Below are positions 81 through 13,670 of a DNA stretch of 28,399 nucleotides, one piece after another (within the stretch, counting starts at the first letter, position 1; the number at the start of each line of letters is the position of its first letter). A program made the position numbers and the translations under genes. This DNA is from a virus (lineage: Duplodnaviria; Caudoviricetes), in IMG/VR virus record IMGVR_UViG_3300028553_000130, positions 1 through 28,399 of that record; one strand, given 5' to 3'. The notes under the pieces are model-generated. The model worked only from the letters and a program-made list of their open reading frames with translations, made no database searches and was not told the origin of the DNA.

Positions 81-2501
81 TCAGCGGCTGGCCGGGAAGA
101 TGTGGGGGAGGGATTTCGCCAGCGGCGCCTTCAGCTTCCGACGCTCCTCCGCCAACCGGGCGCGTGACCGCTCCTCCGCCGCGGGGACGGCATCCCGCAC
201 CTGCTGCTTCATCGCTTCCAAGGCATCGGATTTAACGTGATCGCCGGCGCGCAGCGCCGCGTTCATCCGGTTCGTCAGCTTGAGCAGCGCCCTGTCCAGG
301 TCTGTCCGCGTGGTCTGCGGGTCTTGCAATTGCTTCGCGATATCGGGCGCAGGACTTGCCTTGGGCTTGGCCGCGCGAGCGGGCTTGGGGGCGGGGGGCT
401 TAGCTGGGGCGGCTGGCTTCTCAGCACCAGGCGACCGAACAGCATACCGATCGGCAAGTGCCTTCTTCTGCGCAAGCATGTCCTCATACTGCTGCTCGAT
501 CTTGTGTCCCTTTTTGCGCAGGTCATCCAATCCATTGCGGTCTCTTTCGTACTCCCACTGCGTCACGTCCGCTTTAATATGGGCCGCGGTCTCCGCGTCG
601 ATCTCAGGCGGGAATGGCTTGAACTCCCCGGAATCAAGGATACCCACTTCCATGTCACGCTTTAGATCAGGAAGCCATACCTTGAAATAGTTCGTATCAA
701 ATGCACGCGCCACAAAGCCGACTCGGAACGGCTTGCGCGGGGCTTTCTCTGTCAACTGTTTCGGGGTGATCGATAACGGGTCGGGGGGCTCGGGCTTCGC
801 GCTGGCCGGCGCGCTTGCGGGCTTGGGCTTGGCGTTAGGCGCCCCCGCAATCGCCGCCCGATCGGCAGGGGTTGATCCGATGAGGGCGCGGGGGGCGGGG
901 GCCTGGGGTGACTTCGCCCCCATCCACCCCGGCTTCTCCACCGGCTTGAAGTCCCGGAAAAACTCCGCCTCATCCGCGGTCAGGTCGACATTCGGCGTGT
1001 TGTCGACGAAGTATTGACGCGCGATCTCGCGCCGCTTCGGGTCGTCGATGCTGTCGAGTTGCTTGCCGACGCGGCTGTAAAACGACTCCAGGTTATCGCG
1101 CGAGTTCTTGTAAGCCTCAGCCGCATACCGGCCTTCGCCCTGAAACTGCTTGTCGGTCTTGCGCGCCCGGTCCAAGCCTTCGCTGAATCGCTTGGCAGGA
1201 TCGAGAATGGAATCAAAATGCTGCTTTGCGGATTCGGGGATTTCTTCGCGCTCAGGCTCCGCAGGCTTCTCCGCCGCCCGCACAATCTTCACCGGCTTTT
1301 TCCCGACGGTGCCGGCCGCTTTCCTGCGCTCGAAATCGTCTTTCACCTGGGCCGCTACCTGCCGCGACAGCACCTCGCGCTTTCGCTTCAGGTTGCCGTG
1401 GATCGCTTCCATCAGCGCCTTCTTGCTGCCGAAGTCCTTTGCATCGTGCTCAGGGTCGACCAGGAACAGCCGGCGCGCCAGCGAGTGAGAGTCATCGGCG
1501 TTCAGGTCGTGGAAGGCGTGCAAGGCTTCACGCTGCCGCCCATGCGCAAGGTGGTGCAGGACATGCTCTTCGCGATGCGACATGTGAGCGAACTCGGTCC
1601 GGCCGCGCTCCGGCCGCTTATCGGTGTAACTGTCGACCCAATGCCGTTGGCCGGTCTTGGCGTTCAGCCGGTAGTGGCCGTGGATGTAGGCTTTGACCAG
1701 GGCGTGATGAGCGGGGTTGGGAAAGATCAATAGCATGGGCATGGGTGCGGTCTTGCGTAGGGGGTTGGGATGGTCGATACTGAACGCTGCAGCCGCCTCC
1801 GCGTGAGGTGATGTCTGGCCGCTACCAAGTGCTGCACTGGTGACACCGAAGGGGATCACTCCCGCCCCATGGGGGCTTGAAGCATCGGGGAAGGCGGACG
1901 ACGGCTCGCTTTTTTGGAGCGGGCCGTTATTTTTTCTAGGGTTCTGTCGACGAAACAATCGTGTGACATCCTCTATCGTCTTGAAGTGCGCGCTGCTGAA
2001 CCGATAGGTGTCGCCAGCCTCCCACTTCAATACCACGGTGTAATGCCTCCCGCCGATACGCTGTTCCAACAGCAAATCGGCATCCCAATCACGCAGCCGG
2101 CGCTGCGGATGATCGATGACTTGCAACAGCCGCCCCAGAGCGTGGGCGCGATCGGGATCGAAACCCCTCTTTCCGGTTTTCTGCTGGCCCCCGATATCGG
2201 CCGTGAAGGCATGAGTATTGTCAGCATCAAACCGCACCTTGATCGGATACGCCTTCCCGCCCGAGTGAACCGTCAAGGCCAGGGTCTTGCCGCCCAGGTG
2301 CGCCCGCCACCAGGCGCGGGCCTCGTCCAGCGTGGACAGGCTGGCGCTGCTGGGCAACACCGGGGCGCCAGTTCCGGCGCTACCTCCTGAGCCCGGACCC
2401 TGGGGCGCCTGCTTGACGTGACTTCCGCCGTGCTCCGTGCCCCACCAGCCGCGGGCCTTGGAGAAGAACAGGGCGCGCGGTTGGTGGGGTTGTGTGCTCA
2501 T
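81..2501 (-). CDS. Large polyvalent (probably head-packaged) protein with an N-terminal PBECR-like RNase domain, further unknown domains and Pro/Ala/Lys linkers
   Basis: Start chosen at MSTQ (ATG 2501), 7 nt after a copy of the late motif. N-terminal domain pattern H..R...L..VI.HP...YTVV....F.SAH fits BECR-fold nucleases. Repeated FSKA/LQKS/LVKA/LAKS motifs. Lies downstream of the capsid genes. Confidence 0.65.
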   Translation of the reverse strand: MSTQPHQPRALFFSKARGWWGTEHGGSHVKQAPQGPGSGGSAGTGAPVLPSSASLSTLDEARAWWRAHLGGKTLALTVHSGGKAYPIKVRFDADNTHAFTADIGGQQKTGKRGFDPDRAHALGRLLQVIDHPQRRLRDWDADLLLEQRIGGRHYTVVLKWEAGDTYRFSSAHFKTIEDVTRLFRRQNPRKNNGPLQKSEPSSAFPDASSPHGAGVIPFGVTSAALGSGQTSPHAEAAAAFSIDHPNPLRKTAPMPMLLIFPNPAHHALVKAYIHGHYRLNAKTGQRHWVDSYTDKRPERGRTEFAHMSHREEHVLHHLAHGRQREALHAFHDLNADDSHSLARRLFLVDPEHDAKDFGSKKALMEAIHGNLKRKREVLSRQVAAQVKDDFERRKAAGTVGKKPVKIVRAAEKPAEPEREEIPESAKQHFDSILDPAKRFSEGLDRARKTDKQFQGEGRYAAEAYKNSRDNLESFYSRVGKQLDSIDDPKRREIARQYFVDNTPNVDLTADEAEFFRDFKPVEKPGWMGAKSPQAPAPRALIGSTPADRAAIAGAPNAKPKPASAPASAKPEPPDPLSITPKQLTEKAPRKPFRVGFVARAFDTNYFKVWLPDLKRDMEVGILDSGEFKPFPPEIDAETAAHIKADVTQWEYERDRNGLDDLRKKGHKIEQQYEDMLAQKKALADRYAVRSPGAEKPAAPAKPPAPKPARAAKPKASPAPDIAKQLQDPQTTRTDLDRALLKLTNRMNAALRAGDHVKSDALEAMKQQVRDAVPAAEERSRARLAEERRKLKAPLAKSLPHIFPASR
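1753..1781 (+). promoter_or_regulatory. Putative sigma70 promoter, antisense and internal to the polyvalent gene
   Basis: TTGCGT (1753-1758), 17 bp, GATACT (1776-1781). Confidence 0.55.
1787..1915 (+). ncRNA. Putative structured small RNA antisense to the linker just after the PBECR-like domain
   Basis: Closing stem AGCCG-CC-TCCGC (1791-1802) / GCGGA-CGA-CGGCT (1894-1906); internal hairpins 1828-1838, 1852-1863, 1864-1876; T6 at 1910-1915. Confidence 0.5.
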
Positions 2502-2506
2502 GGGCG

Positions 2507-2911
2507 TTAGTGTGGCGTCACGACGCGGCAGGCAGCGTCCCGGCGCTGATACTCCTCCGCATACCGGGCGACGCGCTCCCACAGGGAATCCTTCAACTCA
2601 CGATAGGGCGTCCGCCGCTGGATTAGTTGCGCCAACAACTGGTCCAGGTCGAACTTCAGTTGCTCAACGTGACGCAGCATGGGTTCCGGCATTTCCTTGA
2701 TCTTGTAGCCGTAGCGCAGGGTTATCCGCCGGGCCACCGAGATCATGATGCCCTTGAGACTTTCGGCTTTTGGACCATCGCCGTTTTCGTCCTGATACCC
2801 GGCCAGGCTCGACACGCGATCCGTGAGCGCCTTCTGGGCTACCGCCTCCGCCGACAGGGCAATCTCGCGGCGGTTGTGCTCCACCGTCAAGGCGGTTGAC
2901 TTCTTACTCAT
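2507..2911 (-). CDS. Hypothetical protein (134 aa)
   Basis: GGAGG RBS upstream; start overlaps the end of the upstream gene. Confidence 0.65.
   Translation of the reverse strand: MSKKSTALTVEHNRREIALSAEAVAQKALTDRVSSLAGYQDENGDGPKAESLKGIMISVARRITLRYGYKIKEMPEPMLRHVEQLKFDLDQLLAQLIQRRTPYRELKDSLWERVARYAEEYQRRDAACRVVTPH
2509..2524 (-). promoter_or_regulatory. Putative late promoter motif, copy 1 (GTCGTGACGCCACACT)
   Basis: Same 12-mer as copies 2-5; 7 nt before ATG 2501. Confidence 0.7.
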
Positions 2912-3908
2912 GGTCGAACCCTCCGGAGATAGCCAGACGTATCATCTCGGCCAGTTGGTCGATTTTCTTCGCCCCGTGCTCCCACTCGCGGCGAATCTCC
3001 TCGGGGGGCGCCCCGCCATGGGCCGGGTCGAAGGCGTCACTGATCAGGACCGCAATGGAGTTGATCAGATGGTCAGCCTCTACGATCCGGGGGCGGTGAC
3101 GGGCAACCGCCTGGTTGGCTTCGGTCAACGGCTCCAGTTCGCTCTTCAGGAACGCGATGCGCTGCTCCAGCGATACCAGTTGGGCCTCGCGCGAGTCGAG
3201 GGTGGATTGCTGCTCGCGCAGCTTGTTGGTGACGCCCCGCTGGATCGCATCCTCGCGCTCGTGCTTGAGGCTCTTGATGGTGTCCTTGAGTTTGTCGGCC
3301 TGTTCCTTGGAGTGCCGAATCTCGGCTCGGGCTTCCAGGACCTTGGCCTGAGCTAACCGCTCGGCTTCCAGGGCGAGGGTGCGGCGCAGCGTGGCGGCTT
3401 CAGCCTGGGCCGTCTCGGCCTTCTGTTCGGCAACCGTGCGCGTCTTCTTTTCGCCGATGGCTTGTTGGCGCCAGGATTCTTTTTCCTCTTGGAGTTTGTC
3501 CACGGCTTCCTGAACCAGCCGGGCCGTCAGCTTGCGACCGTCCTCTTCGGCTTTGGCGGTCGCTTCGGCCCAGACGGTGCGGCGTTCTTCATCGGACAAG
3601 GGAGCGAGGGGGCGCAGTTGGCTCTCTGGGGTAGAGTTGCCAATTGGCAACTCAAGCACTTTTTCTATCGCAGCAGCATTCGCAAGGCGATGAAGGTAAA
3701 CGTTCTCATACCCGAGTTCCGCCTGTCCGTATTCCTCAAAGGAGGCATACCCAAGCGCCTTCCATCCTTTGCGGTCCCGCATGTCGAGCAAGAGTGCGCG
3801 CAGGGTCGTGATGCCGGCCTTGATGGCGGTATTGGTCCGCCGGGCTTCGGCCTGGGTCATCTCCGCGAGGGCGATCTGGTCGGTTGGGGGTAGGGTCATG
3901 TCGTTCAT
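2904..3908 (-). CDS. Phage protein with WKALGYASFEEY motif, possible HTH and long coiled coil
   Basis: ATG 3908 coupled (ATGA) to the upstream HTH gene with GGAGG RBS; heptad-rich C-terminal half. Confidence 0.65.
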   Translation of the reverse strand: MNDMTLPPTDQIALAEMTQAEARRTNTAIKAGITTLRALLLDMRDRKGWKALGYASFEEYGQAELGYENVYLHRLANAAAIEKVLELPIGNSTPESQLRPLAPLSDEERRTVWAEATAKAEEDGRKLTARLVQEAVDKLQEEKESWRQQAIGEKKTRTVAEQKAETAQAEAATLRRTLALEAERLAQAKVLEARAEIRHSKEQADKLKDTIKSLKHEREDAIQRGVTNKLREQQSTLDSREAQLVSLEQRIAFLKSELEPLTEANQAVARHRPRIVEADHLINSIAVLISDAFDPAHGGAPPEEIRREWEHGAKKIDQLAEMIRLAISGGFDHE

Positions 3909-4120
3909 ACCCCCACCTCCGACAGCGTCTCGCCCCGCGCCACGGCGTCTACCTGATCGGCCGGCCACAGCCAACGTCGGTTCGCGAGCTTGACCGGCCG
4001 CAGGCCCAGGTACTCGCCGCGCTCGCGCAGCCGAACATGGATGGTTGGTATCTGGACCCCGAGTACCGCGGCGGTCTGCGCCGTGGAGTAACCGCGGGGT
4101 GGTTGGGTGTTGGAAGCCAT
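3905..4120 (-). CDS. Small excisionase/AlpA-like HTH DNA-binding protein
   Basis: YSTAQTAAVLGVQIPTI...P.KL.N.R.LWP pattern typical of phage winged-HTH proteins. Confidence 0.7.
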   Translation of the reverse strand: MASNTQPPRGYSTAQTAAVLGVQIPTIHVRLRERGEYLGLRPVKLANRRWLWPADQVDAVARGETLSEVGV

Positions 4121-4165
4121 GATGGCGATACTCAGCAAGGCACCGGAGCATACCGGTATAAAGCA

Positions 4166-4181
4166 ATGCTGGCGTCACGAC
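4166..4181 (-). promoter_or_regulatory. Putative late promoter motif, copy 2 (GTCGTGACGCCAGCAT)
   Basis: Exact 12-mer, intergenic, just past the terminator at 4211-4251. Confidence 0.6.
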
Positions 4182-4210
4182 ATTCGGCGCGCCAACATCA
4201 TTTCATACAC

Positions 4211-4251
4211 AAAGCAAAAAAGCCGGCCCGGTCGGGAGGATACGGGCCGGC
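4211..4251 (-). terminator. Rho-independent terminator of the capsid operon
   Basis: GCCGGCCCG / CGGGCCGGC stem followed by TTTTTTGCTTT on the minus strand. Confidence 0.75.
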
Positions 4252-4357
4252 AAGACGCTCAGCAGAATGAGCGACGAGGAGGACAGGGGAGCGGACCGGC
4301 CGCGGCCGGTCCGTAAAAACAGGGACGCCGCACGCAACGGCGCGGTGTCATGCGTAT

Positions 4358-4630
4358 TCATGCCGACGCCGCCGCCGCGCCCTCCTTGCGCCGGCGCCGC
4401 TCCAGTTCGGCCGCCGCTCGGACCGCGCTCGACAGCGGGGCGGCTGGTGCTGGTTCGACGGCTGGTTCCGGCGCCACTTCCGCCACCAACACATACCCCG
4501 GAATCCGCACGAACCGCGCGGCCTCATCCGCCGTGAGCGGGTCCGACAGCATCCCGCCGTCGGTCGGCGCGAACCGCACCCCGCTGATCAGCGTGCCCGC
4601 GTGGGGCAGCGTGCACAGGACGCGCATCAC
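4358..4630 (-). CDS. Small head-operon protein with C-terminal RAAAELERRRRK
   Basis: Coupled to the upstream gene; last gene before the terminator. Confidence 0.65.
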   Translation of the reverse strand: MMRVLCTLPHAGTLISGVRFAPTDGGMLSDPLTADEAARFVRIPGYVLVAEVAPEPAVEPAPAAPLSSAVRAAAELERRRRKEGAAAASA

Positions 4631-5202
4631 GCCAGGTCCGGCAGCGCCGCGGCGGTCAGCGCCAGCGCCGCGGTGTTGACGTAGGTCACGGCAATGCCGG
4701 TCGCGTCCAGCGCCGTGGTCCCGCCGACGAAGTTTGAGCCGCTGGTGTTAGTGACCACGATGTAGCCCACCCGCACCTTGTTGGCCGACACCGCGGCCAA
4801 GGCGGCGACAGCCAGGTCCGCCGTGGCCACGTCCGCGGTCTTGGCGAGGGTGGTCAAGGTCCCGGCAGCATCCATCTCGAAGGCCCAGGCCGCGCTCTTG
4901 GCGGTGGCCAAGGTCCCGGCGAGGGCGGCCATGTCGGTGGCGGCCGACTTGGCCACGGCAACGCCCGAGATCATCGCCGCAAAGGCCCCGGTGGACTTCA
5001 CCAGGACCCCGGACGCGGCCTTGATGGCCAAGGTCGGTGCCGTGGTGAGATAGGCGTTGGTGGTCTTGAGCGTCACCACATCGGCCCGCAAGGCGTTGAT
5101 GGTCGTGATCAAGGACGTGAGAAAGTCCCCCAGCGGCAGGCGCGCGAGGGTCGGCGATTCGCGGTTCAAGGCCGCGACCAGATCAGTCTGTACGATCGTC
5201 AT
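4627..5202 (-). CDS. Probable capsid decoration / minor head protein
   Basis: Ala/Thr-rich; directly after the major capsid gene; start MTIVQTD. Confidence 0.55.
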   Translation of the reverse strand: MTIVQTDLVAALNRESPTLARLPLGDFLTSLITTINALRADVVTLKTTNAYLTTAPTLAIKAASGVLVKSTGAFAAMISGVAVAKSAATDMAALAGTLATAKSAAWAFEMDAAGTLTTLAKTADVATADLAVAALAAVSANKVRVGYIVVTNTSGSNFVGGTTALDATGIAVTYVNTAALALTAAALPDLA

Positions 5203-5274
5203 GGGTTGGACTTCCAGCGAGGGACGCGCCCGATCCATCCGGACCAGGGCGCACCAAGGGCAGCAGGACCGGCC

Positions 5275-6708
5275 TTAACCAAACGGCTTCCAAGCCGCGT
5301 TGGTCGGGACGATGTTCTTGATCACCACATGATGCTGGCGCTTGCTGACCCTGAGGTAGCCCATGTGCAGCAGCGCCCACGGTACCGTCGCCGCCGCCGT
5401 CGGATACAACTGGAACTCGGTCAGCGGCAGCATCTGCCGCCAGGTCATGGCGGTATGCACCGGGCTGAGATTCAGCAGATAGGCGCGACTGGTACCGGGA
5501 ATTTCGCGGTTGGTATCCACCCAAGTGGTGGTCGCTCCGGCCTTGGCCACCTTGGCGACATACCGAAAATCGGTGGTCGCGTTGGTGCCGTTCAGGCGGC
5601 TGCGGTAGATCACATAACCGGTTTCGGTGCCCGCCGCACTGGCCGTGATGGTCAGCGTCACCTTATCGCCCGCGGCCACCGCCACCTGGGCCGACTTGAC
5701 CACCACCGACTCACCGAACTTGTTGATGCCGGTGACCGCGTAGTAGTAATTGCCCGCCTGGCCGGCCGCGAACTTGCTCGACACCTCGGCCGCCGCCACT
5801 CCGGCCACGGATACCGGCACGAAGGCGTTGGCGGTCGCGGTCGCGGAGAACGCCACCTCGAACGGCAGTTGAAAGTTCTCATCGCGGATGTAGATGTCCC
5901 GCGTCACCACCACATCCCCCTGCGAGGTGATGATCCCGCGCACCGGGGTCCCGCGCTGGCTGGCCTGGCCGTTGGGCAGCGCCACGCGCATCGCCGGGTC
6001 GAAGTTGGTATCCATGTCCGCACCGACCAGCGGGGAGATCAACAGATCGGTCGGGATGCCGTAGTTACCGCGCCCGGAGATCACCGCCGCCGCCTGGGCG
6101 ATGGCATTCACCGAACTCAGCGACTGCCCCTCCGCGTCGATGATGTGATCGGCGCTGTTGAGTGCCACCATCTGCGCGTAGATGCCGTCGAACTCCTCCG
6201 GCACCACGGCGGTATCACCCTCGAAGCAACCCAACTCCGAATCCTGCAACAGCCGCAAGGTGCCGTTGACGTTCTCCTGCGCCTTGAGGTTGATGAACGC
6301 CCCCTGCGTCATCGCCACATAGGTGACCTCACAGCGCGTCATCTGGAACGCCACCCGCCCGGTGCGGCGGTTGTAGGTGCCTTGGCCGGCCGCGATGTTG
6401 CCCGCCTCCGAGTTGAACGAGGACCCCGGATGCGCGCCGACCGCGGACAACTCCATCCACTCATCGATGGTCGCCACCGCTTGCGGCTTGGGCAGCTTGT
6501 TGAACAGCACAAAGTGCGGGTTGCCCATGATCACCGACTGCAACACCGGATCGATGGACTGCACGCGCACCGCCGCGCCGCCCGTGAGGGTCGACAGATC
6601 GGTGCCGCCCCCCGCTTCGATGGCTTTGCGCAGCGCCTCGGCATCTTGCTGGGTCGCAATGCCGGCCCCGACATCGCCCCGGTTCTGTAACTGCGGAAAA
6701 GGGAACAT
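5275..6708 (-). CDS. Major capsid protein, SPO1/K/A511 (Herelleviridae)-like
   Basis: Motifs LRKA-IEAG..TD....GAAVR, EFDGI, IIDAEG.SL, YG.PTD, YVIYR, D.N.EIPGT, terminal VIKNI recall Herelleviridae capsids; order protease-scaffold-capsid. Confidence 0.85.
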   Translation of the reverse strand: MFPFPQLQNRGDVGAGIATQQDAEALRKAIEAGGGTDLSTLTGGAAVRVQSIDPVLQSVIMGNPHFVLFNKLPKPQAVATIDEWMELSAVGAHPGSSFNSEAGNIAAGQGTYNRRTGRVAFQMTRCEVTYVAMTQGAFINLKAQENVNGTLRLLQDSELGCFEGDTAVVPEEFDGIYAQMVALNSADHIIDAEGQSLSSVNAIAQAAAVISGRGNYGIPTDLLISPLVGADMDTNFDPAMRVALPNGQASQRGTPVRGIITSQGDVVVTRDIYIRDENFQLPFEVAFSATATANAFVPVSVAGVAAAEVSSKFAAGQAGNYYYAVTGINKFGESVVVKSAQVAVAAGDKVTLTITASAAGTETGYVIYRSRLNGTNATTDFRYVAKVAKAGATTTWVDTNREIPGTSRAYLLNLSPVHTAMTWRQMLPLTEFQLYPTAAATVPWALLHMGYLRVSKRQHHVVIKNIVPTNAAWKPFG

Positions 6709-6740
6709 GACTGATTGACTCCAGGCAATGGCAGGGAAAA

Positions 6741-7379
6741 TTACGCGGTCAGCGCTTTCATCAGGTGGGCCGGCACCGGCTCGCCCATATTGAGGTAACT
6801 GTTCACCTCGGCGACCTCGACTGGCCCCAGGCGTTGGATCGCCTTGGCCAGCAGGGCGTCACGGTCGGGCGCGTCGGTCGCCGCCGCGGGCGCCGCGGGC
6901 GCGTGCAACACGCTCTGATGCCCGCGCGATTGCTTGACCATGCGCTGCTGATCGCGCCGCAGGGACTCCAGGTCGGCGGACATGGATTTCAGCAGGGTGA
7001 CGGTGTTACTCAGGACCTGATGCGTGGCCGCGTTACGGGCATCGGCCTGTGCGCGCAGACCGGCCAAGTCAGTGCTCAGCGCCAGCAGGGCATCGGTGCC
7101 GTCCAGGGCTTCGACGCTGGACCCGTCGGACAGGGTGACGGCGAAGGCTTTGCTGATGGGACGCGCGTCGTCGTCATCAGCATCGCCGGCGCGATCGGGG
7201 GCGTCGTCGTCATCATCATCGTCCTTGTTGTCGTCCTGGCCGTCCTGGTGGTCCTCATCCTTGGCCGCCGCGAGGATCTTCGCCTCGTCGTCCTGTTTCG
7301 GCTCCGGGGACTTGACCGCTTTTTGCAGCGTGGTCAGGTCCTCCAGCAGCGCGTCAAACTCAGTGTTTGCAGTGCTCAT
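6741..7379 (-). CDS. Probable scaffolding protein
   Basis: Asp-rich tract, coiled coil, several K-A/K-S motifs, located between protease and capsid. Confidence 0.65.
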   Translation of the reverse strand: MSTANTEFDALLEDLTTLQKAVKSPEPKQDDEAKILAAAKDEDHQDGQDDNKDDDDDDDAPDRAGDADDDDARPISKAFAVTLSDGSSVEALDGTDALLALSTDLAGLRAQADARNAATHQVLSNTVTLLKSMSADLESLRRDQQRMVKQSRGHQSVLHAPAAPAAATDAPDRDALLAKAIQRLGPVEVAEVNSYLNMGEPVPAHLMKALTA

Positions 7380-8245
7380 CCGATGCTTCTCCGGTTCTGT
7401 GTATGCGCCAATACATCGCGCAAAAAGCGCTCGACCCAGCCGGAAGCCTCGTCGGGCGGTACATGGAAAGTGGTGATGAGGTAGTCAGCCATCGGCTGCG
7501 GCCGGGGCTCGCCGCCGCTGCGCAGGTAGCGCGCCAAGGCTTCACGCACGGGGACATAGTCGACCTGGGGCTGGATGACCTGCGGGGCCGGATCGATCGA
7601 CTCGACACGCACCGCCGCGCCGCCGGTGAGGGTCGCCACGTCGGTGCCGTAGCCGGCTTCCAGGGCCTTGATCGCCGCGCCGCCCATCAGACATTTGGCG
7701 AGGACCCCGGCCTCCATGACGGCCGCGGGCGGGACCATGGTATTGACCGGGGTGCGCGACAAGCCGATGTTGCTCCACAGCACGCTAGTGACCGTGGTCT
7801 CCTGGGTCACCGGATCGACCTGCCGGCCGCCGCTCGGCACATGACCGGCGACGCTCGGATACCAGGGCGTTGGCGGCGTCACCTTGGTCATGGAGTCCCA
7901 GACCATGTTCGCATTGGCCGCCACCGGGCTATCGCCGCGGTACAGTTGCGCCTTGACCAGCGTGCGGGTGTCATCGCCCGTGACTGCAATCGGCTGGCCG
8001 ATGGCCCACAGATAGGGGTTATCGCCCACCGCCGCGCTGCGCTGGGTGCGATGGTCCAGGTCGATCACGCCATAGCGCAGAAAATAGTCACTGGACGCTT
8101 GCAGCGATTTCGCCAACACCCGCTCGCCCTGCAAATCCAGGTGCTCGTTGCTGGCCTCCATGTACAGAATGCGCTCGCCGCCCTCTTCGGCCGGACGCGC
8201 CTTGAACAGGCCGGACACCACCAGGACATCGTTGCTCGTATTCAT
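7376..8245 (-). CDS. Prohead protease
   Basis: EAS.E.LD.QGE, IDLDH (catalytic His), YPSVAG (catalytic Ser), LSR.PVN. Confidence 0.8.
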   Translation of the reverse strand: MNTSNDVLVVSGLFKARPAEEGGERILYMEASNEHLDLQGERVLAKSLQASSDYFLRYGVIDLDHRTQRSAAVGDNPYLWAIGQPIAVTGDDTRTLVKAQLYRGDSPVAANANMVWDSMTKVTPPTPWYPSVAGHVPSGGRQVDPVTQETTVTSVLWSNIGLSRTPVNTMVPPAAVMEAGVLAKCLMGGAAIKALEAGYGTDVATLTGGAAVRVESIDPAPQVIQPQVDYVPVREALARYLRSGGEPRPQPMADYLITTFHVPPDEASGWVERFLRDVLAHTQNRRSIG

Positions 8246-8252
8246 GGGCGGC

Positions 8253-8268
8253 AGTGTGGCGTCACGAC
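8253..8268 (-). promoter_or_regulatory. Putative late promoter motif, copy 3 (GTCGTGACGCCACACT)
   Basis: 16/16 identical to copy 1 and again 7 nt before the ATG (8245). Confidence 0.75.
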
Positions 8269-8301
8269 AGCGCGGGGTCGATCATTGGGCTTCATACCGA
8301 C

Positions 8302-8341
8302 AGCATGGCGTCACGACGCGCGCCTGTCGTGACGCCATCAT
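8302..8341. promoter_or_regulatory. Back-to-back late motif copies 4 (minus, 8302-8317) and 5 (plus, 8326-8341, facing the portal)
   Basis: ATGGCGTCACGAC-N8-GTCGTGACGCCAT inverted pair in the divergent protease/portal gap. Confidence 0.7.
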
Positions 8342-8406
8342 CACCGCAGCGGCACCGTCCGGGCGGTCGGAGCCCGTCCTCCCGCCACCTGATTGGACCG
8401 GCCTCT

Positions 8407-10881
8407 ATGACGACGTATGCCACCGCGCACGATCCGCGCGCCCCTCACGACGAACGCAACGACGCCCTGGGGCAGTTGCAGCAGACCTACCTGCCGACGC
8501 CAAGTGACCTGATCCCGCGGGCGGACCTCGCGCCGGTCATCGACTTCATCGCCGATCAGTACGCGCAGCAGGACGCCGCCATCCTGCGCAAAGCCCAGGC
8601 GATCGACTTCATGGGACGGCCCCGCGCCAAGACCGGAATGCAATCGGTCCGCCTCGACCCCCTGCAAGCCCTGGCGTTCGGCAAGTATTACGAGCGGCCC
8701 AGCGTGCTGAACACCGACGCCTTGCGCGCCATGGTCGAACAGACCCCAATCCTCAACGCCGTGCTGCTGACCCGCATCCGCCAGGTGCAGCGCTTCTGCC
8801 AGCCGCAAGACGGCGGTCGCGGTCCGGGGTTCATGATCGCCCACGTCGACCCGCAGCACGACATCACCCCGCCCGAGCAACGCGCCCGCGAAGCGCTGAC
8901 GCGATTCCTCACCCACAGCGGCTGGGAATCCCGCCCGCGGCAACGCGCTCGCCTGCGCCGCGACCCGTTCAGCACCCTGATCGCCAAGGCAACGCGCGAG
9001 TCATTGACCTATGACGCGCTGGCGATCGAAACCGAGACCCAGCGCGGCACCGGCCTGCTCGATGGCTGCTACGCGCTCGACGGCTCCACCATCCGCCTCT
9101 GCCCGGAAACCGGCTACCGGGGCGATCCCGACGTGTTTGCCGTCCAGGTCGTCACCGGCCAAGTCGTCACCACCTACACCCACGACGACCTGATCTACAC
9201 CCCGCGCAACCCGCGCGCCGATGTGCGCCTGGGCGGCTACGGGCTCGGTGAGACTGAGTTGCTGGTGCGCGTCGTCACCGGCTTTCTCAACGCCATGACC
9301 CACAACAGCAAGGGCTTTGACGACAACAGCTTTCCGCGCGGCTTCCTGTCGCTGTTCGGCACCATCGACACCAGCCAGCAAGAAGCCTTCAAGCGCCATT
9401 GGCACAGCATGGTGCACGGCCCCAACAACCACTGGCGGATGCCGGTCCTGTTCAGCCAGGACCCAACCGGCAAGGCCGAGTTCACGCGCATCGATGTCGC
9501 CGCCGACGAAATGCACTTCGCCAAGTGGATGACCTTCCTCACCTCGCTCATCTGCGCCATCTACGGCATGTCGCCGGCCGAGATCAACTTCGATTCCTTC
9601 ACCGGCGGCAACACCTCGGCCCTGGCCGGCAGCGACACCGCGCAAAAACTCGCCGCGTCCAAGGATTCCGGTCTGCGCCCGTTGCTGTCGTACCTGGAAG
9701 GGGTGTGCTCGGATGACCTCGTCGGCCGCTTCAGCGATCACTACTGCTTCCGCTGGACCGGGCTCGACGAGGACGACGCCGCGCAGCGCCTGGAAATCCG
9801 CAAGCTGGTGTTGACGGTGAACGAGCTGCGCGCCGAAGAAGGCTACGCGGCGCTGCCCGGTCCGTTGGGGGATGCGCCCATCAACCCGTCCCTGATCGGG
9901 CCGTGGATGCAAATTGCGACCGGTGGAGGACAGACAGATGATACGAGCGGCGCGGACGCGCGAGAGCAAGACGGGGCCACTGCAAGCGCGGACAGCAGCC
10001 AACCGGGCGGACCCGACGCGGGCGATCAGGGCGATCAGAAAGCGGCTGCGGCGGCTGCGACTGAGGACGCGCCGACAGCGGGCCGCCGAGGCCGTATGGG
10101 GGCTGACGGCGCAGGACGTGGCGACGGGGCTGAGGACGCTGGGGGGCGGTTAGCGAAGGCTGATCCTTATCATGACGACGATGGGCGATTTGCACGATCC
10201 CCGCAAGTGCACTACGAGAAACGCCAACTTCATGAACTCTACGACTTCACGCTGAAGCATCCATTGGCGGCGCCAGACGCCATGCTGGTGCGTCTCCAAG
10301 CATCCGACCTGGTTGCGCAGTTAGACAAAGGGCCGGCGGTAGAGGCCAGCGACGGATCGATCAAAGTGACAGGAAAGCAGTTGAGTCGTCAGCCGGGCGG
10401 CACGGCGCGCGGATATGGCTTGGTCAAGTTTATTTGGAAACACGGGGAGCGTGCGGGCGAGACGGCTGGCTATCATGTGACGCGCGGCGACGTACTGGCT
10501 CTGCCGGAAGTCATCCGCTCAACGCCGACGGCGATCGTGTCCGATGCCACCGGTCATCCGGTGCATTGGGAGTGGCGCCGCACGCGCTTCGATGGCAAAA
10601 CAGCGGTCTATGGCGCCAGCCGCTTCACGTCCAGCGATGACCGCAACCATCTGGTGACGCTCTACATTGAGCAACCGGGACGGGTACAGAAAAGCGGCTC
10701 AAATCTCGGAGAGGGGCTGTTTACCCCCATGCCCCGGATACCGGCCTGTGACCTTTCAATCGTTCAACAGGCGGTTGAGCCGCTCACGATCTATTATTGC
10801 CCTGCCCAGACCGAAGTCAAGGACGCCATGGAAAAGGCCCTCCACGCCGTCGACCCCCAGGTTTGGACCATCGCCACGTGA
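8407..10881 (+). CDS. Portal protein (Herelleviridae-like) with C-terminal acidic linker and PBECR-like nuclease extension
   Basis: ILNAVLLTRIRQV..FC.P, DGSTIR, R.PR.D....GYG..E.E, F.KW..FL...ICAIYGM.P.EINF, SKD.GL.PLL, LTVNELR; extension contains DPYHDDDGRFA and GYGLVKFIWKHG. Confidence 0.85.
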   Translation: MTTYATAHDPRAPHDERNDALGQLQQTYLPTPSDLIPRADLAPVIDFIADQYAQQDAAILRKAQAIDFMGRPRAKTGMQSVRLDPLQALAFGKYYERPSVLNTDALRAMVEQTPILNAVLLTRIRQVQRFCQPQDGGRGPGFMIAHVDPQHDITPPEQRAREALTRFLTHSGWESRPRQRARLRRDPFSTLIAKATRESLTYDALAIETETQRGTGLLDGCYALDGSTIRLCPETGYRGDPDVFAVQVVTGQVVTTYTHDDLIYTPRNPRADVRLGGYGLGETELLVRVVTGFLNAMTHNSKGFDDNSFPRGFLSLFGTIDTSQQEAFKRHWHSMVHGPNNHWRMPVLFSQDPTGKAEFTRIDVAADEMHFAKWMTFLTSLICAIYGMSPAEINFDSFTGGNTSALAGSDTAQKLAASKDSGLRPLLSYLEGVCSDDLVGRFSDHYCFRWTGLDEDDAAQRLEIRKLVLTVNELRAEEGYAALPGPLGDAPINPSLIGPWMQIATGGGQTDDTSGADAREQDGATASADSSQPGGPDAGDQGDQKAAAAAATEDAPTAGRRGRMGADGAGRGDGAEDAGGRLAKADPYHDDDGRFARSPQVHYEKRQLHELYDFTLKHPLAAPDAMLVRLQASDLVAQLDKGPAVEASDGSIKVTGKQLSRQPGGTARGYGLVKFIWKHGERAGETAGYHVTRGDVLALPEVIRSTPTAIVSDATGHPVHWEWRRTRFDGKTAVYGASRFTSSDDRNHLVTLYIEQPGRVQKSGSNLGEGLFTPMPRIPACDLSIVQQAVEPLTIYYCPAQTEVKDAMEKALHAVDPQVWTIAT
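10688..10788 (-). ncRNA. Putative structured small RNA antisense to the linker after the portal PBECR-like domain
   Basis: Perfect 10-bp closing stem AGCGGCTCAA (10693-10702) / TTGAGCCGCT (10775-10784); internal hairpins; ends in TTTTCT. Confidence 0.55.
10793..10820 (-). promoter_or_regulatory. Putative sigma70 promoter antisense within the portal 3' end
   Basis: TTGACT, 16 bp, AATAAT on the minus strand, about 8 nt before the closing stem. Confidence 0.5.
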
Positions 10882-11081
10882 CGCCGGTCCAGGTCGCCTG
10901 CCGCGCCTGTGCCCACTGGGTGCGCGACACGGTAGGCGATGGCACGGGGTTGGGGTCCTGCCTGGCGCAGGCCCCAGCGAGCAAGCGGCCCGGCAGCTTA
11001 TGGCCGGGATCTTGGTGCGTCTGCCGGGACTATCAGGAAGCGCCGAGCGTTCCAAGCCGATCGGCCATCACGGGCCGCTGA
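10878..11081 (+). CDS. Small Cys-rich protein (CxxCxHW...C...C)
   Basis: GTG overlaps the portal TGA. Confidence 0.55.
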   Translation: MTPVQVACRACAHWVRDTVGDGTGLGSCLAQAPASKRPGSLWPGSWCVCRDYQEAPSVPSRSAITGR

Positions 11082-11583
11082 TGCTCCGCCGCTTTTTGAC
11101 CACCACCGTGGGGCGCTTGGAGGGTGCCGCGACGGGCGGGGCAGCGACCTGAACCACGGCCGTTGTCGGCTGCTTGGCTGGCTTCGCCGCCGCCGGTAGC
11201 TTCGCCTGCGCCGCCGCGTGCCGCTCCAACTGCTGCGCCCGCGCAAGCGCCTTCGTCGCCGCCGCCGCGCGGTCCTGCTCGACACTCACCCGCGCCAACT
11301 GCGCCGCGGCGGCCGTAACCACTCCAACGGGCGCGCCCTGCAAGTTGATCCGCGTCGCGCCCTCAATCAGCAGCCGGCGATAAGTGATGCGGGTGCAGTG
11401 ATACGCGAGGGCCGCGTGCACCTGCTTGACGTTCACCTCCGGCCGGGTGGCGGTCCAGGCCAGGATCGGCTCCCGAATCCCGATCGCCAGCGGGCGCAGC
11501 GCGGCATCGTCGGCGGGGAAGGCCAGCGGGAACGCTTCGCGCAAGGCCAACAGCGCGCGGGAGGGGGGTTTCTTCAAGCTCAC
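11068..11583 (-). CDS. ProQ/FinO-family RNA chaperone
   Basis: L...FP.AF......PLAIGI...I, AL..H.....Y...L..GA.RINL.G...G.VT signature. Confidence 0.85.
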   Translation of the reverse strand: MSLKKPPSRALLALREAFPLAFPADDAALRPLAIGIREPILAWTATRPEVNVKQVHAALAYHCTRITYRRLLIEGATRINLQGAPVGVVTAAAAQLARVSVEQDRAAAATKALARAQQLERHAAAQAKLPAAAKPAKQPTTAVVQVAAPPVAAPSKRPTVVVKKRRSISGP

Positions 11584-11643
11584 GTCGGGATGCTCCGTGG
11601 TGGGGGCCGCGTCCGTGCGGCCGGGGTTATCGGCGCCGATGAT

Positions 11644-12789
11644 TCACCAGTCGGTCAACGCCCACAGCGTGTCGGGTAACGCTGGCGTCCAGGGCAGGGA
11701 CTGGTCCAGCGCCGCGGACGCCTGGCTCCGGAACGCGCGCCACATCTGCGTGGACGACAACAGGATGCCGCGCAGGGCGTGGAACTGGATCAGGGCGCCG
11801 TTCACGTCGTGGCCATCGGCCTTGAGTTGGCGCAACAGGTCGCCGAGCGGCGAGCCGATCTGATTGAGCCAGGCCGAGCTGTTGATCATGCCGTCGGCGC
11901 TACGCCGGTCGGGCTTCGCCAACTCCGCCGGGTAGTGGTAGCGCGTGGCCGCCGCCCGCGCGGGGGCAAAGCGGTCAATCACCTCGCCGAGGATCGTGGG
12001 GGAGGCGAGCGCCACCGGCGCCGGTTCCGGCAACGGCGCGATCCCGACCAACACCCCGTCGCGCAGCGTCACCAGGGCGCGTAGCTGGATCTCGACGCCT
12101 GCGCCGGCGGGCGGCGGCAGGCGCGAACCGCCGAGCGCGCCGAGCGTATCCAACACCGTGCGCGTCCACTCGCGCAGTCGGGCGGCGCGCGGGGTATGAA
12201 TCAGCAGGCACAGCAGGTAGACACCCCACACCGAGAAGATGCGCACCTGCGGCGTGCGCCCGTCACGGATCACCGCGGACATGCCCGCGAACTGGCCCCG
12301 GTTGCGGTGGAAGGTGTTCTGCACCAGGTGAAGACCTTCGCCCAGGGCGGCGGCGAGCGTTGAAGCGGCCAGCCAGGGGGCGCCGTCGCGCTCGATCACA
12401 CGCAGGGTGGTGCCCTCGAAGTCGATGGTGGCGGGGATGGGTTGGGGCACGGCAGAGGGAGCCGCGTACCGTCCGGTCTTGCGGATGGTCGGGAGAATCT
12501 CCTCCACCACCAGGCGCTCGAACGCCTGGGCGCTGTCCAGGGTGGAACCGAAGATTAGACGGTAGAGGTCTGGCTCGCGGATGACGCGGGCCTCCTGCAT
12601 CCGCCCCAAAGCATCCGGGATGGGGTGCAATTCCTGCACCCCACGGCAGTGGGACTTAACGGCAGTTGTCGGGTCCTTGTAACCGAGGGCTTCAGCAACG
12701 TCCTTGGCGACAAACAGCGGTTCGCCGTTGTCGTCGGTCAGGACGCGGACTTTGTGGGACTCAAACGAAAAGGGGACCAGGTTGGTCAT
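11644..12789 (-). CDS. Bro-N family antirepressor with a second Bro-N-like domain
   Basis: F.FE...VRV.....EPLFVAKDVAEALGY...HC, EPDLYRLI..S, EEILPTIRKTG.Y; GGAG RBS before ATG 12789. Confidence 0.88.
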   Translation of the reverse strand: MTNLVPFSFESHKVRVLTDDNGEPLFVAKDVAEALGYKDPTTAVKSHCRGVQELHPIPDALGRMQEARVIREPDLYRLIFGSTLDSAQAFERLVVEEILPTIRKTGRYAAPSAVPQPIPATIDFEGTTLRVIERDGAPWLAASTLAAALGEGLHLVQNTFHRNRGQFAGMSAVIRDGRTPQVRIFSVWGVYLLCLLIHTPRAARLREWTRTVLDTLGALGGSRLPPPAGAGVEIQLRALVTLRDGVLVGIAPLPEPAPVALASPTILGEVIDRFAPARAAATRYHYPAELAKPDRRSADGMINSSAWLNQIGSPLGDLLRQLKADGHDVNGALIQFHALRGILLSSTQMWRAFRSQASAALDQSLPWTPALPDTLWALTDW

Positions 12790-12833
12790 GGCATAACTCC
12801 AGAGCGTCTTTCCCGATGTCAAACGGGGATAGC

Positions 12834-12899
12834 GGACCGTGCGAGGTTGACATACCGGGCTCTGGGTCCGGCGCACCCGAAAGTGCCCCCGCACGGCCC
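12834..12899 (-). ncRNA. C4-type antisense RNA (P1/P4-like immunity RNA)
   Basis: Closing stem with internal GCAC-TTTCGG-GTGC hairpin; exposes CCAGAG and ATGTCAA, complementary to flanking TTGACAT...CTCTGG targets at 12955-12976 and 12799-12822. Confidence 0.8.
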
Positions 12900-12925
12900 T
12901 AAACTGGAGCCGCGCGTTCGTCCAT

Positions 12926-12949
12926 AAAAAAACCGCCAAGGCGGCGGTT
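12926..12949 (-). terminator. Attenuator terminator between the upstream C4 target and the C4 RNA
   Basis: AACCGCC-GCCTT-GGCGGTT continuing into a T-run. Confidence 0.75.
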
Positions 12950-13007
12950 GTCCGCCAGAGTCTTCCGGGATGTCAAGCCCGACCGCTGGGACCCCAGCGG
13001 CCCGCAG

Positions 13008-13037
13008 AGCATAGGTCGGGCGGGGCGCGGGTGTCAA
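13008..13037 (-). promoter_or_regulatory. sigma70 promoter of the c4/antirepressor operon
   Basis: TTGACA, 18 bp, TATGCT. Confidence 0.7.
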
Positions 13038-13053
13038 GGCAACACAGGCGCGC

Positions 13054-13087
13054 TTGACGGTATGGATAATTGTCTATATCGTTATCC
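13054..13087 (+). promoter_or_regulatory. brnTA promoter with probable autorepression operator
   Basis: TTGACG at 13054; inverted repeat GGATAA-N12-TTATCC at 13064-13087. Confidence 0.55.
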
Positions 13088-13089
13088 GC

Positions 13090-13362
13090 ATGAACTTCAC
13101 CTGGGACGAATCAAAGCGCACCACCAACCGGAAGAAACACGGGATGGACCTGGCCGCTGCGGCAACGGCCTTCACCGGGCACACGTTCACCTTCGAGGAT
13201 CGGCGCTTCGCCTATGGCGAACACCGATTTATCACCCTGGGGCTGTTGGGTGTCACCGTGGTCGTGATCGCACACACGGAAACATCCGACACGATTCACG
13301 TCATTTCCCTGCGCAAGGCCGATAAACATGAGCAACGCCACTATTACCAGCAAGTGGGATGA
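13090..13362 (+). CDS. brnT: BrnT-family ribonuclease toxin
   Basis: F.WDE.K...N..KHG, D.RF.YGE.R...LG, IHVISLRKA...E. Confidence 0.92.
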   Translation: MNFTWDESKRTTNRKKHGMDLAAAATAFTGHTFTFEDRRFAYGEHRFITLGLLGVTVVVIAHTETSDTIHVISLRKADKHEQRHYYQQVG

Positions 13363-13624
13363 TACCGACCTGGATACGGCGCCGCCGGTGACTCAAGAGG
13401 ACCTGGCCCGTGCCGTTCACCGCGTCGGACTACAGCCCGCGCCGGGTAAAAAAACCAAGATCAGCATTGCCCTGGACCCGGACGTGGTGTCATGGTTCAA
13501 GCACCAGTCAGGCGAGCGCGGCTATCAGACGCTGATCAACGCCACGCTGCGCGAGGCCATGCAGCGCCGCACCCTTGAAGACACGTTGCGGCGGGTCATC
13601 CGCGAAGAGCTTCATCCCGCATGA
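13328..13624 (+). CDS. brnA: BrnA-family antitoxin
   Basis: K..ISI.LD.DVV.WFK......YQT.IN..LR; overlaps brnT. Confidence 0.92.
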   Translation: MSNATITSKWDDTDLDTAPPVTQEDLARAVHRVGLQPAPGKKTKISIALDPDVVSWFKHQSGERGYQTLINATLREAMQRRTLEDTLRRVIREELHPA

Positions 13625-13670
13625 TGTGGACGCGCGAGGGTGGGCGGCGCGCAGCGGCCCCGTCAGTGAC

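Follow-up and report, generated by a model that had tools for sequence, protein, structure and literature searches.

In the type I pairs bsrG/SR4 and txpA/RatA, found in prophage elements of Bacillus subtilis, an antisense RNA is encoded convergently to the toxin gene and overlaps its 3' end. In the type III systems (ToxIN and its relatives) a structured RNA binds and neutralises an endoribonuclease; the antitoxins of this type are tandem repeats situated upstream of the toxin on the same strand and processed by the toxin. SymR overlaps the 5' end of symE, and the c4 antisense RNA is co-transcribed upstream of its target, not embedded in antisense orientation behind a nuclease domain. RalR/RalA and SymE/SymR are pairs in which a toxin of the nuclease type is under the control of a small RNA, RalA being trans-encoded, with 16 nucleotides of complementarity, and SymR cis-encoded (PMC4041452, PMC1891008; here and below as far as the available portions of these papers go). 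Fusions of portal and MuF proteins with PBECR domains, predicted RNases of the BECR fold that are thought to be packaged and delivered, were described by Iyer et al. 2017 (PMC5512222, likewise from the available portion). Here we consider a stretch of phage DNA of 28,399 nucleotides (hereafter, the window; IMG/VR record IMGVR_UViG_3300028553_000130, positions 1 to 28,399; Caudoviricetes), in which a portal gene and a gene of a polyvalent-type virion protein (gene 1) each encode a nuclease-like domain followed by a candidate structured small-RNA gene on the opposite strand, type A and type B, respectively.

This layout had been noticed in a preliminary description of the window made from its letters alone, and it turned out to be conserved in homologues: in two dissimilar genes a nuclease-like domain is followed, on the antisense strand, by a promoter-like site, a candidate RNA and a U-tract. 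The proposal made there that the domains are virion-borne and that each has an RNA of its own is supported: the RNA-bearing domains sit in virion proteins (portal and polyvalent), and each domain family has its own antisense RNA family, with sigma70-like promoters and terminators, as follows from scans of homologues and from two covariance models (R2 for type A and R3 for type B). Similarly to bsrG/SR4 and txpA/RatA, a structured small RNA with its own housekeeping promoter would converge on a toxin gene in a prophage and overlap its 3' end. Unlike in these pairs, the presumed toxin is not a small membrane peptide but an RNase-like domain of approximately 140-160 amino acids that belongs to a portal or polyvalent protein; the open reading frame can enclose the whole RNA gene, the complement of which is then translated as an interdomain linker, and the RNA families are new. 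The combination of a nuclease-like toxin and an RNA antitoxin would be shared with RalR/RalA and SymE/SymR, the former also residing on a cryptic prophage, whereas RalA and SymR, in the portions of the papers cited above, are neither nested in a multidomain virion protein nor move as a domain cassette. In contrast to type III antitoxins, the RNAs of the window are single-copy, convergent, located on the opposite strand and provided with their own promoters; no direct-repeat family was seen in either RNA region among the 20 largest ones listed, no dedicated tandem-repeat search having been run. The c4 RNA (RF01695), which controls the harmful phage gene ant, is likewise a phage-encoded structured small RNA, but differs from the RNAs considered here in family, position and target.

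As in the fusions of Iyer et al. 2017, a portal or polyvalent protein carries a domain that may be an RNase of the BECR type, whereas the domains of the window match none of the Pfam PBECR models. The words antisense, small RNA and noncoding are absent from that paper (PMC5512222), and a preprint on BECR RNases (10.64898/2026.08.28.747851) likewise has neither these words nor RNA antitoxin or type III. The nested arrangement of an RNA after a nuclease was not found in the literature on PBECR or on antisense RNAs, prophages and toxin-antitoxin systems, supplements aside, and may still have been published; on the latter subjects, titles and abstracts pointed to known type I systems and to unrelated work. 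The locus may be regarded as an RNA-antitoxin variant whose nested layout is unusual and, as far as we found, not previously described.

For the type A RNA we used DNA of the portal-domain relatives from viral and metagenome contigs, grouped into 28 distinct domain-bearing sequences (28-58% identity), the window's own copies apart. A covariance model trained on nine sequences and run over 38 sources (R1), together with its second round with the filters off (R2), matches 27 of these sequences, each time on the antisense strand at the domain's 3' end (expectation value, E, from 4e-28 to 0.033), the only sequence matched by neither being L024. Eight of the 27 are training sequences, nine non-training groups are found at E <= 0.001 already with R1 (3e-14 to 7e-4), and R2 added L045, L047, L008, L043 and L039 (6e-6 to 0.033). 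The match in the window spans 10685-10792. A scan for DNA patterns of the type A cores, in which the protein was ignored, retrieved only two contigs, both already known.

The predicted type A structure is a three-way junction, where a helix P1 closes two hairpins, P2 and P3, instead of the approximately three suggested earlier for the portal side. The fold z-score of this region is -3.1 for the antisense strand versus -1.1 for the sense strand. RNAalifold applied to nine sequences finds compensatory changes in 14 of 21 pairs. In a model-guided alignment of 25 distinct rows, which was fitted to the structure and is thereby biased in its favour, 83.1% of cells are paired versus 61.9% in shuffles, and the covariation score is 0.422 versus 0.148 in shuffled alignments, none of 500 shuffles reaching 0.422 (<= 0.138 with slid partners). 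The P2 helix has changes on both sides in all six of its pairs. As the register of P1 differs between sequences and it has no alignment columns, its support rests on single-sequence folds, the same P1-closed junction being obtained for 17 of 20 distinct full-length RNAs (exceptions, L051, L009 and L042). Read by eye, the P1 mismatches of L015 and L016 are G-U pairs in the antisense RNA, whereas the sense strand would have C-A at these places.

On the antisense strand, each of 11 homologues shows a promoter-like site, the shared GUAUC core and a U-rich end. The core is read in all three frames, as CGG ATA CCG in the window, CGG GAT ACC in L037 and GGA TAC ACC in L035, and is translated as RIP, RDT or GYT depending on the homologue; therefore it is conserved at the nucleotide, not the protein, level. 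A P2 loop of the form C-GA...AA-G is kept alongside GUAUC across homologues, also regardless of frame. Between the window and L015, with 54% protein identity over the compared region, part of the linker DNA is almost identical, synonymous sites included. In six of six pairs compared, codons of identical residues are the same in 67-87% of cases in the region of the RNA and promoter versus 40-50% in the domain. In homologues, too, the corresponding position has promoter-like sites (the best score averages 8.3/12, versus 5.86 in controls), a score of at least 8/12 being reached in 13 of 20 loci versus 45 of 1000 control stretches, and the site in the window is one of only two called in 12 kilobases. 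A U-run follows P1 in about 14-15 of 20 homologues, as read by eye from the alignment rows. The downstream antisense promoter-like sites and the covariation that the preliminary description had proposed to look for in homologues are both found for type A. Of the features expected from an independent small-RNA gene (its own promoter, a covarying structure and a terminator) type A shows all at the level of sequence, and its interpretation as a conserved structured small-RNA gene with promoter- and terminator-like signals is well supported.

The type B RNA lies antisense to the linker of gene 1. An RNA-strand terminator was called in all six scanned loci (the window, L063, L065, L066, L067 and L068), and in the six sequences its stem has columns UG:3/CG:3 and AU:4/GC:2, with G-U on the antisense strand only. 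The gene 1 protein motif RKNNGPLQKS is the translation of the complement of the terminator hairpin and T-run, and a motif K-N-x-G-P-L-Q-K recurs among the relatives of the gene 1 domain that we read, with unusual linkers of a few types coming after it. The terminator hairpin of the window is kept in L003 (58% protein identity over the domain), while the loop is free to vary, and A-rich codons, presumably rare at the G+C content of the window, are situated exactly under the T-run. The earlier claim that in both genes the U-tract complements the codons of a QKS motif stands for the portal; in gene 1 the QKS complement (1908-1916) forms the loop of the hairpin, and it is the R-K-N codons (1929-1937) that the U-tract behind the stem complements. 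Likewise, of the two sigma70-like promoters proposed, the portal one is recovered by the scan, and the gene 1 one falls below its threshold.

Threshold-level promoters on the RNA strand are present in L066 (TTGACC-17-TATAGT, 10/12) and L068 (TTGCCT-17-TAAAAT, 9/12), and TTGCAT-17-GATACT in L067 and TTGAGC-17-TAGACT in L063 were read by eye at a similar distance from the terminator. Single-sequence folds have a closed multi-hairpin body before the terminator in four of six loci (z from -1.4 to -2.2). The covariance model R3 matches the window at 1780-1948 (a training sequence) and, outside the training set, L060 (E 4e-4). The open reading frame ends right after GPLQK in L059, L068 and L069 and right after GGLQKK in L060; in these loci the RNA B gene is located outside the frame, as a separate convergent gene, the stop being inside the terminator in L059/L069 and L060. 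In L068 the terminator in the portal sense is located beyond the RNA B gene, and therefore the portal mRNA would contain the full complement of the RNA. Altogether, of the features named above for type A, type B has the terminator in six of six loci, a threshold promoter in two of six and a poorly supported body structure from six sequences.

Table 1. Positions in the window of the two genes, their nuclease-like domains and the elements of the antisense RNA genes.
Feature	Position	Strand	Basis or remark
Gene 1, polyvalent-type virion protein	81..2501	-	806 amino acids from ATG 2501; mechanical open reading frame from GTG 2582
Gene-1-type nuclease-like domain	1945..2366	-	conserved His at ~2213 and ~1988
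Type B weak promoter-like site TTGCGT-17-GATACT	1754..1782	+	7/12, below scan threshold, read by eye
Type B RNA body	1783..1899	+	antisense to gene 1 linker; closed multi-hairpin, z -1.9
Type B terminator	1900..1938	+	hairpin 1900-1928, T-run 1929-1938; complement translated as RKNNGPLQKSEP
Portal gene	8407..10881	+	probable ATG 8407; mechanical open reading frame from 8254; rise of third-codon-position G+C (GC3) at ~8400
Portal C-terminal PBECR3-like domain	10204..10684	+	W-K-H-G ... N-H motif
Type A promoter-like site TTGACT-16-AATAAT	10820-10793	-	10/12, promoter scan
Type A small RNA, ~100 nucleotides, three-way junction	10785-10693	-	fold, covariance model, covariation
Type A P1	10785-10775 with 10702-10693	-	closes P2 and P3
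Type A P2 hairpin	10774-10740	-	fold
Type A P3 hairpin	10739-10703	-	fold
Type A invariant core GUAUC	complement of 10737-10741	-	at junction
Type A U-tract	10693-10687	-	after 3' arm of P1; complement of CAG AAA AGC (QKS codons, 10687-10695)

As these features are conserved in homologues, they exceed chance, which the window alone does not show. Both linkers had been described as poorly protein-like, and their GC3 is indeed 0.53-0.67 compared to 0.8-0.97 in the neighbouring coding sequence. We also observed that the third-position G+C is approximately 0.5-0.8 over both nuclease cassettes (1800-2300 and 9870-10800) versus approximately 0.9 in the portal core, which fits a recent acquisition from elsewhere. 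The models R2 and R3 do not cross-detect: R3 finds no type B RNA in the type A loci, and R2 finds nothing significant in the type B loci. Thus, each RNA family keeps to its own domain family and, as expected from the preliminary description, the two RNAs share no detectable sequence; their common origin is unsupported, the only trace being an R2 match at 1816-1915 (+) with E 0.7. In Rfam 15 there is no match at either RNA site at E <= 1 for the window, and only chance-level rows at E <= 10 for sub-regions. A tRNA-like element was ruled out, as ARAGORN finds no tRNA or tmRNA, and an integron attC-like or other DNA-level site was rejected because of the promoter and terminator signals and of G-U pairs on one strand only.

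The distribution of the domains suggests that a domain and its RNA form a portable cassette, which some orthologous portals carry, some have exchanged for another and some lack. The portal of L069 is 91% identical to P0097 over residues 1-507; beyond residue 507, P0097-P0100 carry Pfam PBECR3, and L069 carries the gene-1-type domain followed by RNA B. The portal of L070 (80% identical) ends with neither PBECR3 nor the gene-1-type domain and RNA B. Outside portals, the portal-type domain with RNA A is situated at the N-terminus of a giant polyvalent protein in L035, the same domain with its tail module is seen, at the protein level, inside P0005, and a giant protein of L003 begins with the gene-1-type domain and RNA B. 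A second phage contig (L036/L058) carries both cassettes, as the window does. In both families the RNA gene converges on the domain and overlaps its final codons, and if further domains are encoded downstream, the frame continues uninterrupted across the RNA gene. The portals P0097-P0100 with true Pfam PBECR3 end in ...YIKKKKA, and the run of Lys codons there would correspond to a T-run in the complementary strand; hence a convergent RNA gene may also follow canonical PBECR3.

The domains had been described as PBECR-like. The sequence comparisons support this in part: the portal-type motif W-K/R-H-G ... N-H, the PBECR3/PBECR1 neighbours and the replacement of PBECR3 by the gene-1-type domain agree with it, whereas a match to Pfam PBECR is lacking. 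None of these families (PF18809-PF18814) matches either window domain even at E <= 10, 14 distant portal-type homologues give no PBECR matches, neither domain is covered by any Pfam, NCBIfam or PHROG model, and searches of the sequences of PDB chains yielded nothing meaningful for them. In colicin-like BECR RNases, PBECR3 included, a Lys-His precedes the core helix and a His is located on the last strand (10.64898/2026.08.28.747851, available portion). The portal-type domain, found at E <= 0.001 in 13 proteins (the window's own cluster, 11 portal fusions and the polyvalent protein P0005), has columns W96, H98, G99, N166 and H167 invariant in eight of eight sequences; its nearest clusters in a protein-language-model atlas are PBECR3 and PBECR1 (0.92), which is no more than a lead to the BECR fold. 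Its best local hhalign match to the PBECR3 portals covers the K-H-G ... VT motif and is non-significant (E 0.13). We consider this domain PBECR3-like and nuclease-like.

The gene-1-type domain is found in 76 cluster representatives at E <= 0.001. In an alignment of 12 sequences H97 is nearly invariant and H172 invariant; PBECR2 is matched in one of 28 members (E 0.0014), and the atlas neighbours are a mixture of LPD3 and PBECR3 (0.90). The best argument for a nuclease here is that the domain replaces PBECR3 in an orthologous portal, and this assignment is supported more weakly than for the portal-type domain. By hhalign the two domain families have no detectable relation, and their common origin is unsupported. 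After the linker, the gene 1 product resembles P0005, which carries LPD1, PBECR3 and LPD3 (Pfam); the whole protein has no Pfam or PHROG match. The portal is recognised by its core (Pfam Phage_portal, E 3.9e-18; phrog_12, E 4e-37), beyond which extends a C-terminal part of approximately 340 residues. A motif K-A-N/D-P-x-H-D-x-x-G-R-F (approximately 10156-10195 in the window) precedes the portal-type domain in the homologues P0004-P0015 and flanks the whole module on both sides in P0005, being a candidate domain-boundary or processing signal.

Each RNA is plausibly a cognate partner of its domain and likely its antidote. We put first, tentatively and with less than even confidence, the alternative that each RNA is the cognate antitoxin of the domain and acts mainly by pairing with the mRNA that it overlaps. 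The host RNA polymerase would transcribe the RNA from the sigma70-type promoter both in the lysogen and early in infection; the RNA would pair with leaky late transcripts carrying the nuclease domain, and the duplex would block expression or trigger cleavage, as in type I pairs with 3'-overlapping ends. The toxic cassette could thereby be tolerated in the prophage, and later strong late transcription would outrun the RNA, so that the domain is built into virions. Antisense control is placed first because two unrelated RNA families keep a costly convergent, overlapping position and because the sense mRNA must, in every context, contain the full complement. An antisense RNA gene overlapping the toxin transcript, as in type I systems, is seen in both families as a gene layout only, and this layout would fit plain type I-like antisense control at least as well as inhibition of the protein.

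Several observations weigh against antisense pairing. Even deeply diverged homologues share the GUAUC junction and the P2 loop, which therefore point to protein recognition, since pairing in cis needs neither of them. Pairing with the mRNA of the essential portal could be costly to the phage. In L065 the domain is rearranged and broken, but the RNA B gene next to it has remained whole, terminator included, and P0083 carries a translation of RNA B with no gene-1-type domain adjacent. Most cases of the association came from searches that started with the domain and proceeded to the RNA, hence RNA genes without a domain would be under-counted. The type B promoter is weak in the window and reaches the threshold in only two of the six scanned loci, and the type B body structure is derived from six sequences of three subtypes, with one further relative (L060) matched. 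The rearrangement in L065 (477-938) leaves an N-terminal piece of the gene-1-type protein on the RNA strand and the C-terminal tail on the other strand, the middle of the domain being missing.

If, instead, the RNA were a protein-binding antitoxin or decoy, similarly to type III systems and as the preliminary description proposed, its three-way junction would bind the RNase-like domain or mimic the substrate and so hold the domain inactive in the cell that makes it, and it would also neutralise domains injected into the lysogen by related phages. We place this alternative second, as somewhat less probable than antisense pairing. It would best explain why GUAUC and the C-GA...AA-G loop persist at 28-58% protein identity in any reading frame, although the conserved junction could serve folding only, and why each RNA family is restricted to one domain family. 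The intact RNA of L065, which is also best explained in this way, would then resemble an orphan immunity gene, and the joint movement of domain and RNA as a cassette would resemble toxin-immunity pairs. However, a protein-binding RNA need not be convergent or overlapping, yet both families are, and the tandem repeats of known type III antitoxins are absent.

A still less likely variant is that the RNA does not neutralise the neighbouring domain at all, being a regulator of host or phage targets, a cofactor or cargo of the virion protein, or a block to transcription between modules, and that the physical overlap of its terminator with the end of the domain-coding sequence is all that keeps the two together. 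Such an overlap makes separation by recombination unlikely, and the presence of RNA B in P0083 away from a gene-1-type domain agrees with this variant; on the other hand, hitch-hiking alone would hardly place two unrelated RNA families alike after two unrelated domains. A three-way-junction RNA near a portal gene recalls the pRNA of phi29. A portal RNA of this kind was rejected as the leading explanation, as the RNA follows the domain, not the portal, into non-portal proteins (the N-terminus in L035; internally in P0005).

Finally, it is highly improbable that there is no functional RNA, the signal being one of DNA or a chance structure in a low-complexity linker: the type B body z-scores are modest (-1.4 to -2.2), but the stems have compensatory changes, their G-U pairs are confined to one strand, the promoter and terminator signals keep a constant spacing, and the frame-independent core also excludes a protein-level cause.

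The viral contig (approximately 65% G+C) encodes a terminase large subunit, an Ant-type anti-repressor, the portal, a prohead protease and a major head protein. Identical copies are found in three viral-contig records, and among GenBank phages there is no DNA match to the window and no protein match to either domain. In one contig scan, the sole match in a bacterial genome was a short contig of Lamprocystis purpurea (98% protein identity), cut inside the domain, and the source name of one portal homologue is "uncultured Thiodictyon"; because of these two matches the host is probably a purple sulfur bacterium. The covariance model R1 has no match in the Lamprocystis purpurea genome or in 151 sampled genomes of its class, which says little, as the scoring was limited to 25 candidates per genome.

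Within 7376-15398 the portal gene alone is encoded by the plus strand among the virion and packaging genes named above, the minus strand encoding the terminase, the protease and the major head protein; the divergent portal and protease genes are separated by approximately 160 base pairs. An invertible portal segment was rejected, as no flanking inverted repeats were found. A 27-nucleotide element ends at the ATG of gene 1 (2498-2524) and at the ATG of the protease gene (8242-8268), the copies being 93% identical; a shorter third copy is located 50 nucleotides upstream, in the protease-portal intergenic region (8298-8317). It is a candidate signal of late-gene control or translation. There is also an 83-nucleotide direct repeat (6546-6628 and 7588-7670, 82% identical), which encodes nearly the same 27 residues (22/27) close to the N-terminus of the major head protein and within the C-terminal part of the protease open reading frame, and the peptide may be a shared assembly or cleavage segment. 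The Rfam c4 antisense RNA family (RF01695) matches the window at 12825-12904 on the minus strand (50.1 bits, above the gathering score), and the a1/b1 target element and isrK match within 12825-13014 (-), each just below the gathering score. These matches fall on the 5' end of the Bro-N/Ant anti-repressor gene (11644-12939) and on the DNA upstream of it, and the region 12825-13014 (-) looks like an immunity I region of the P1/P7 type.

Thus, two candidate structured RNA families with no match in Rfam 15 recur in uncultured phage and metagenome contigs. A complete small-RNA gene would be located inside a protein-coding frame, its complement being translated as an interdomain linker, and this layout bears on how the linkers of polyvalent proteins are read and where their boundaries are set. 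It offers a testable answer to the question of how a phage or a lysogen tolerates a virion-borne RNase before delivery, and the portable cassette of domain and RNA gives a handle on the exchange of effector domains. If the RNAs do bind their domains, the cognate RNase-RNA pairs would be useful orthogonal parts. It is possible, though less probable than not, that the nuclease cassettes shuffled among portal and polyvalent proteins each bring their own RNA immunity gene, embedded antisense in the linker behind the domain, whose folded product binds and disarms the cognate RNase. If such immunity by direct binding is true, polymorphic toxins, with their protein immunity genes, would have a counterpart that relies on RNA, and many "disordered linkers" of polyvalent proteins would be the complements of small-RNA genes.

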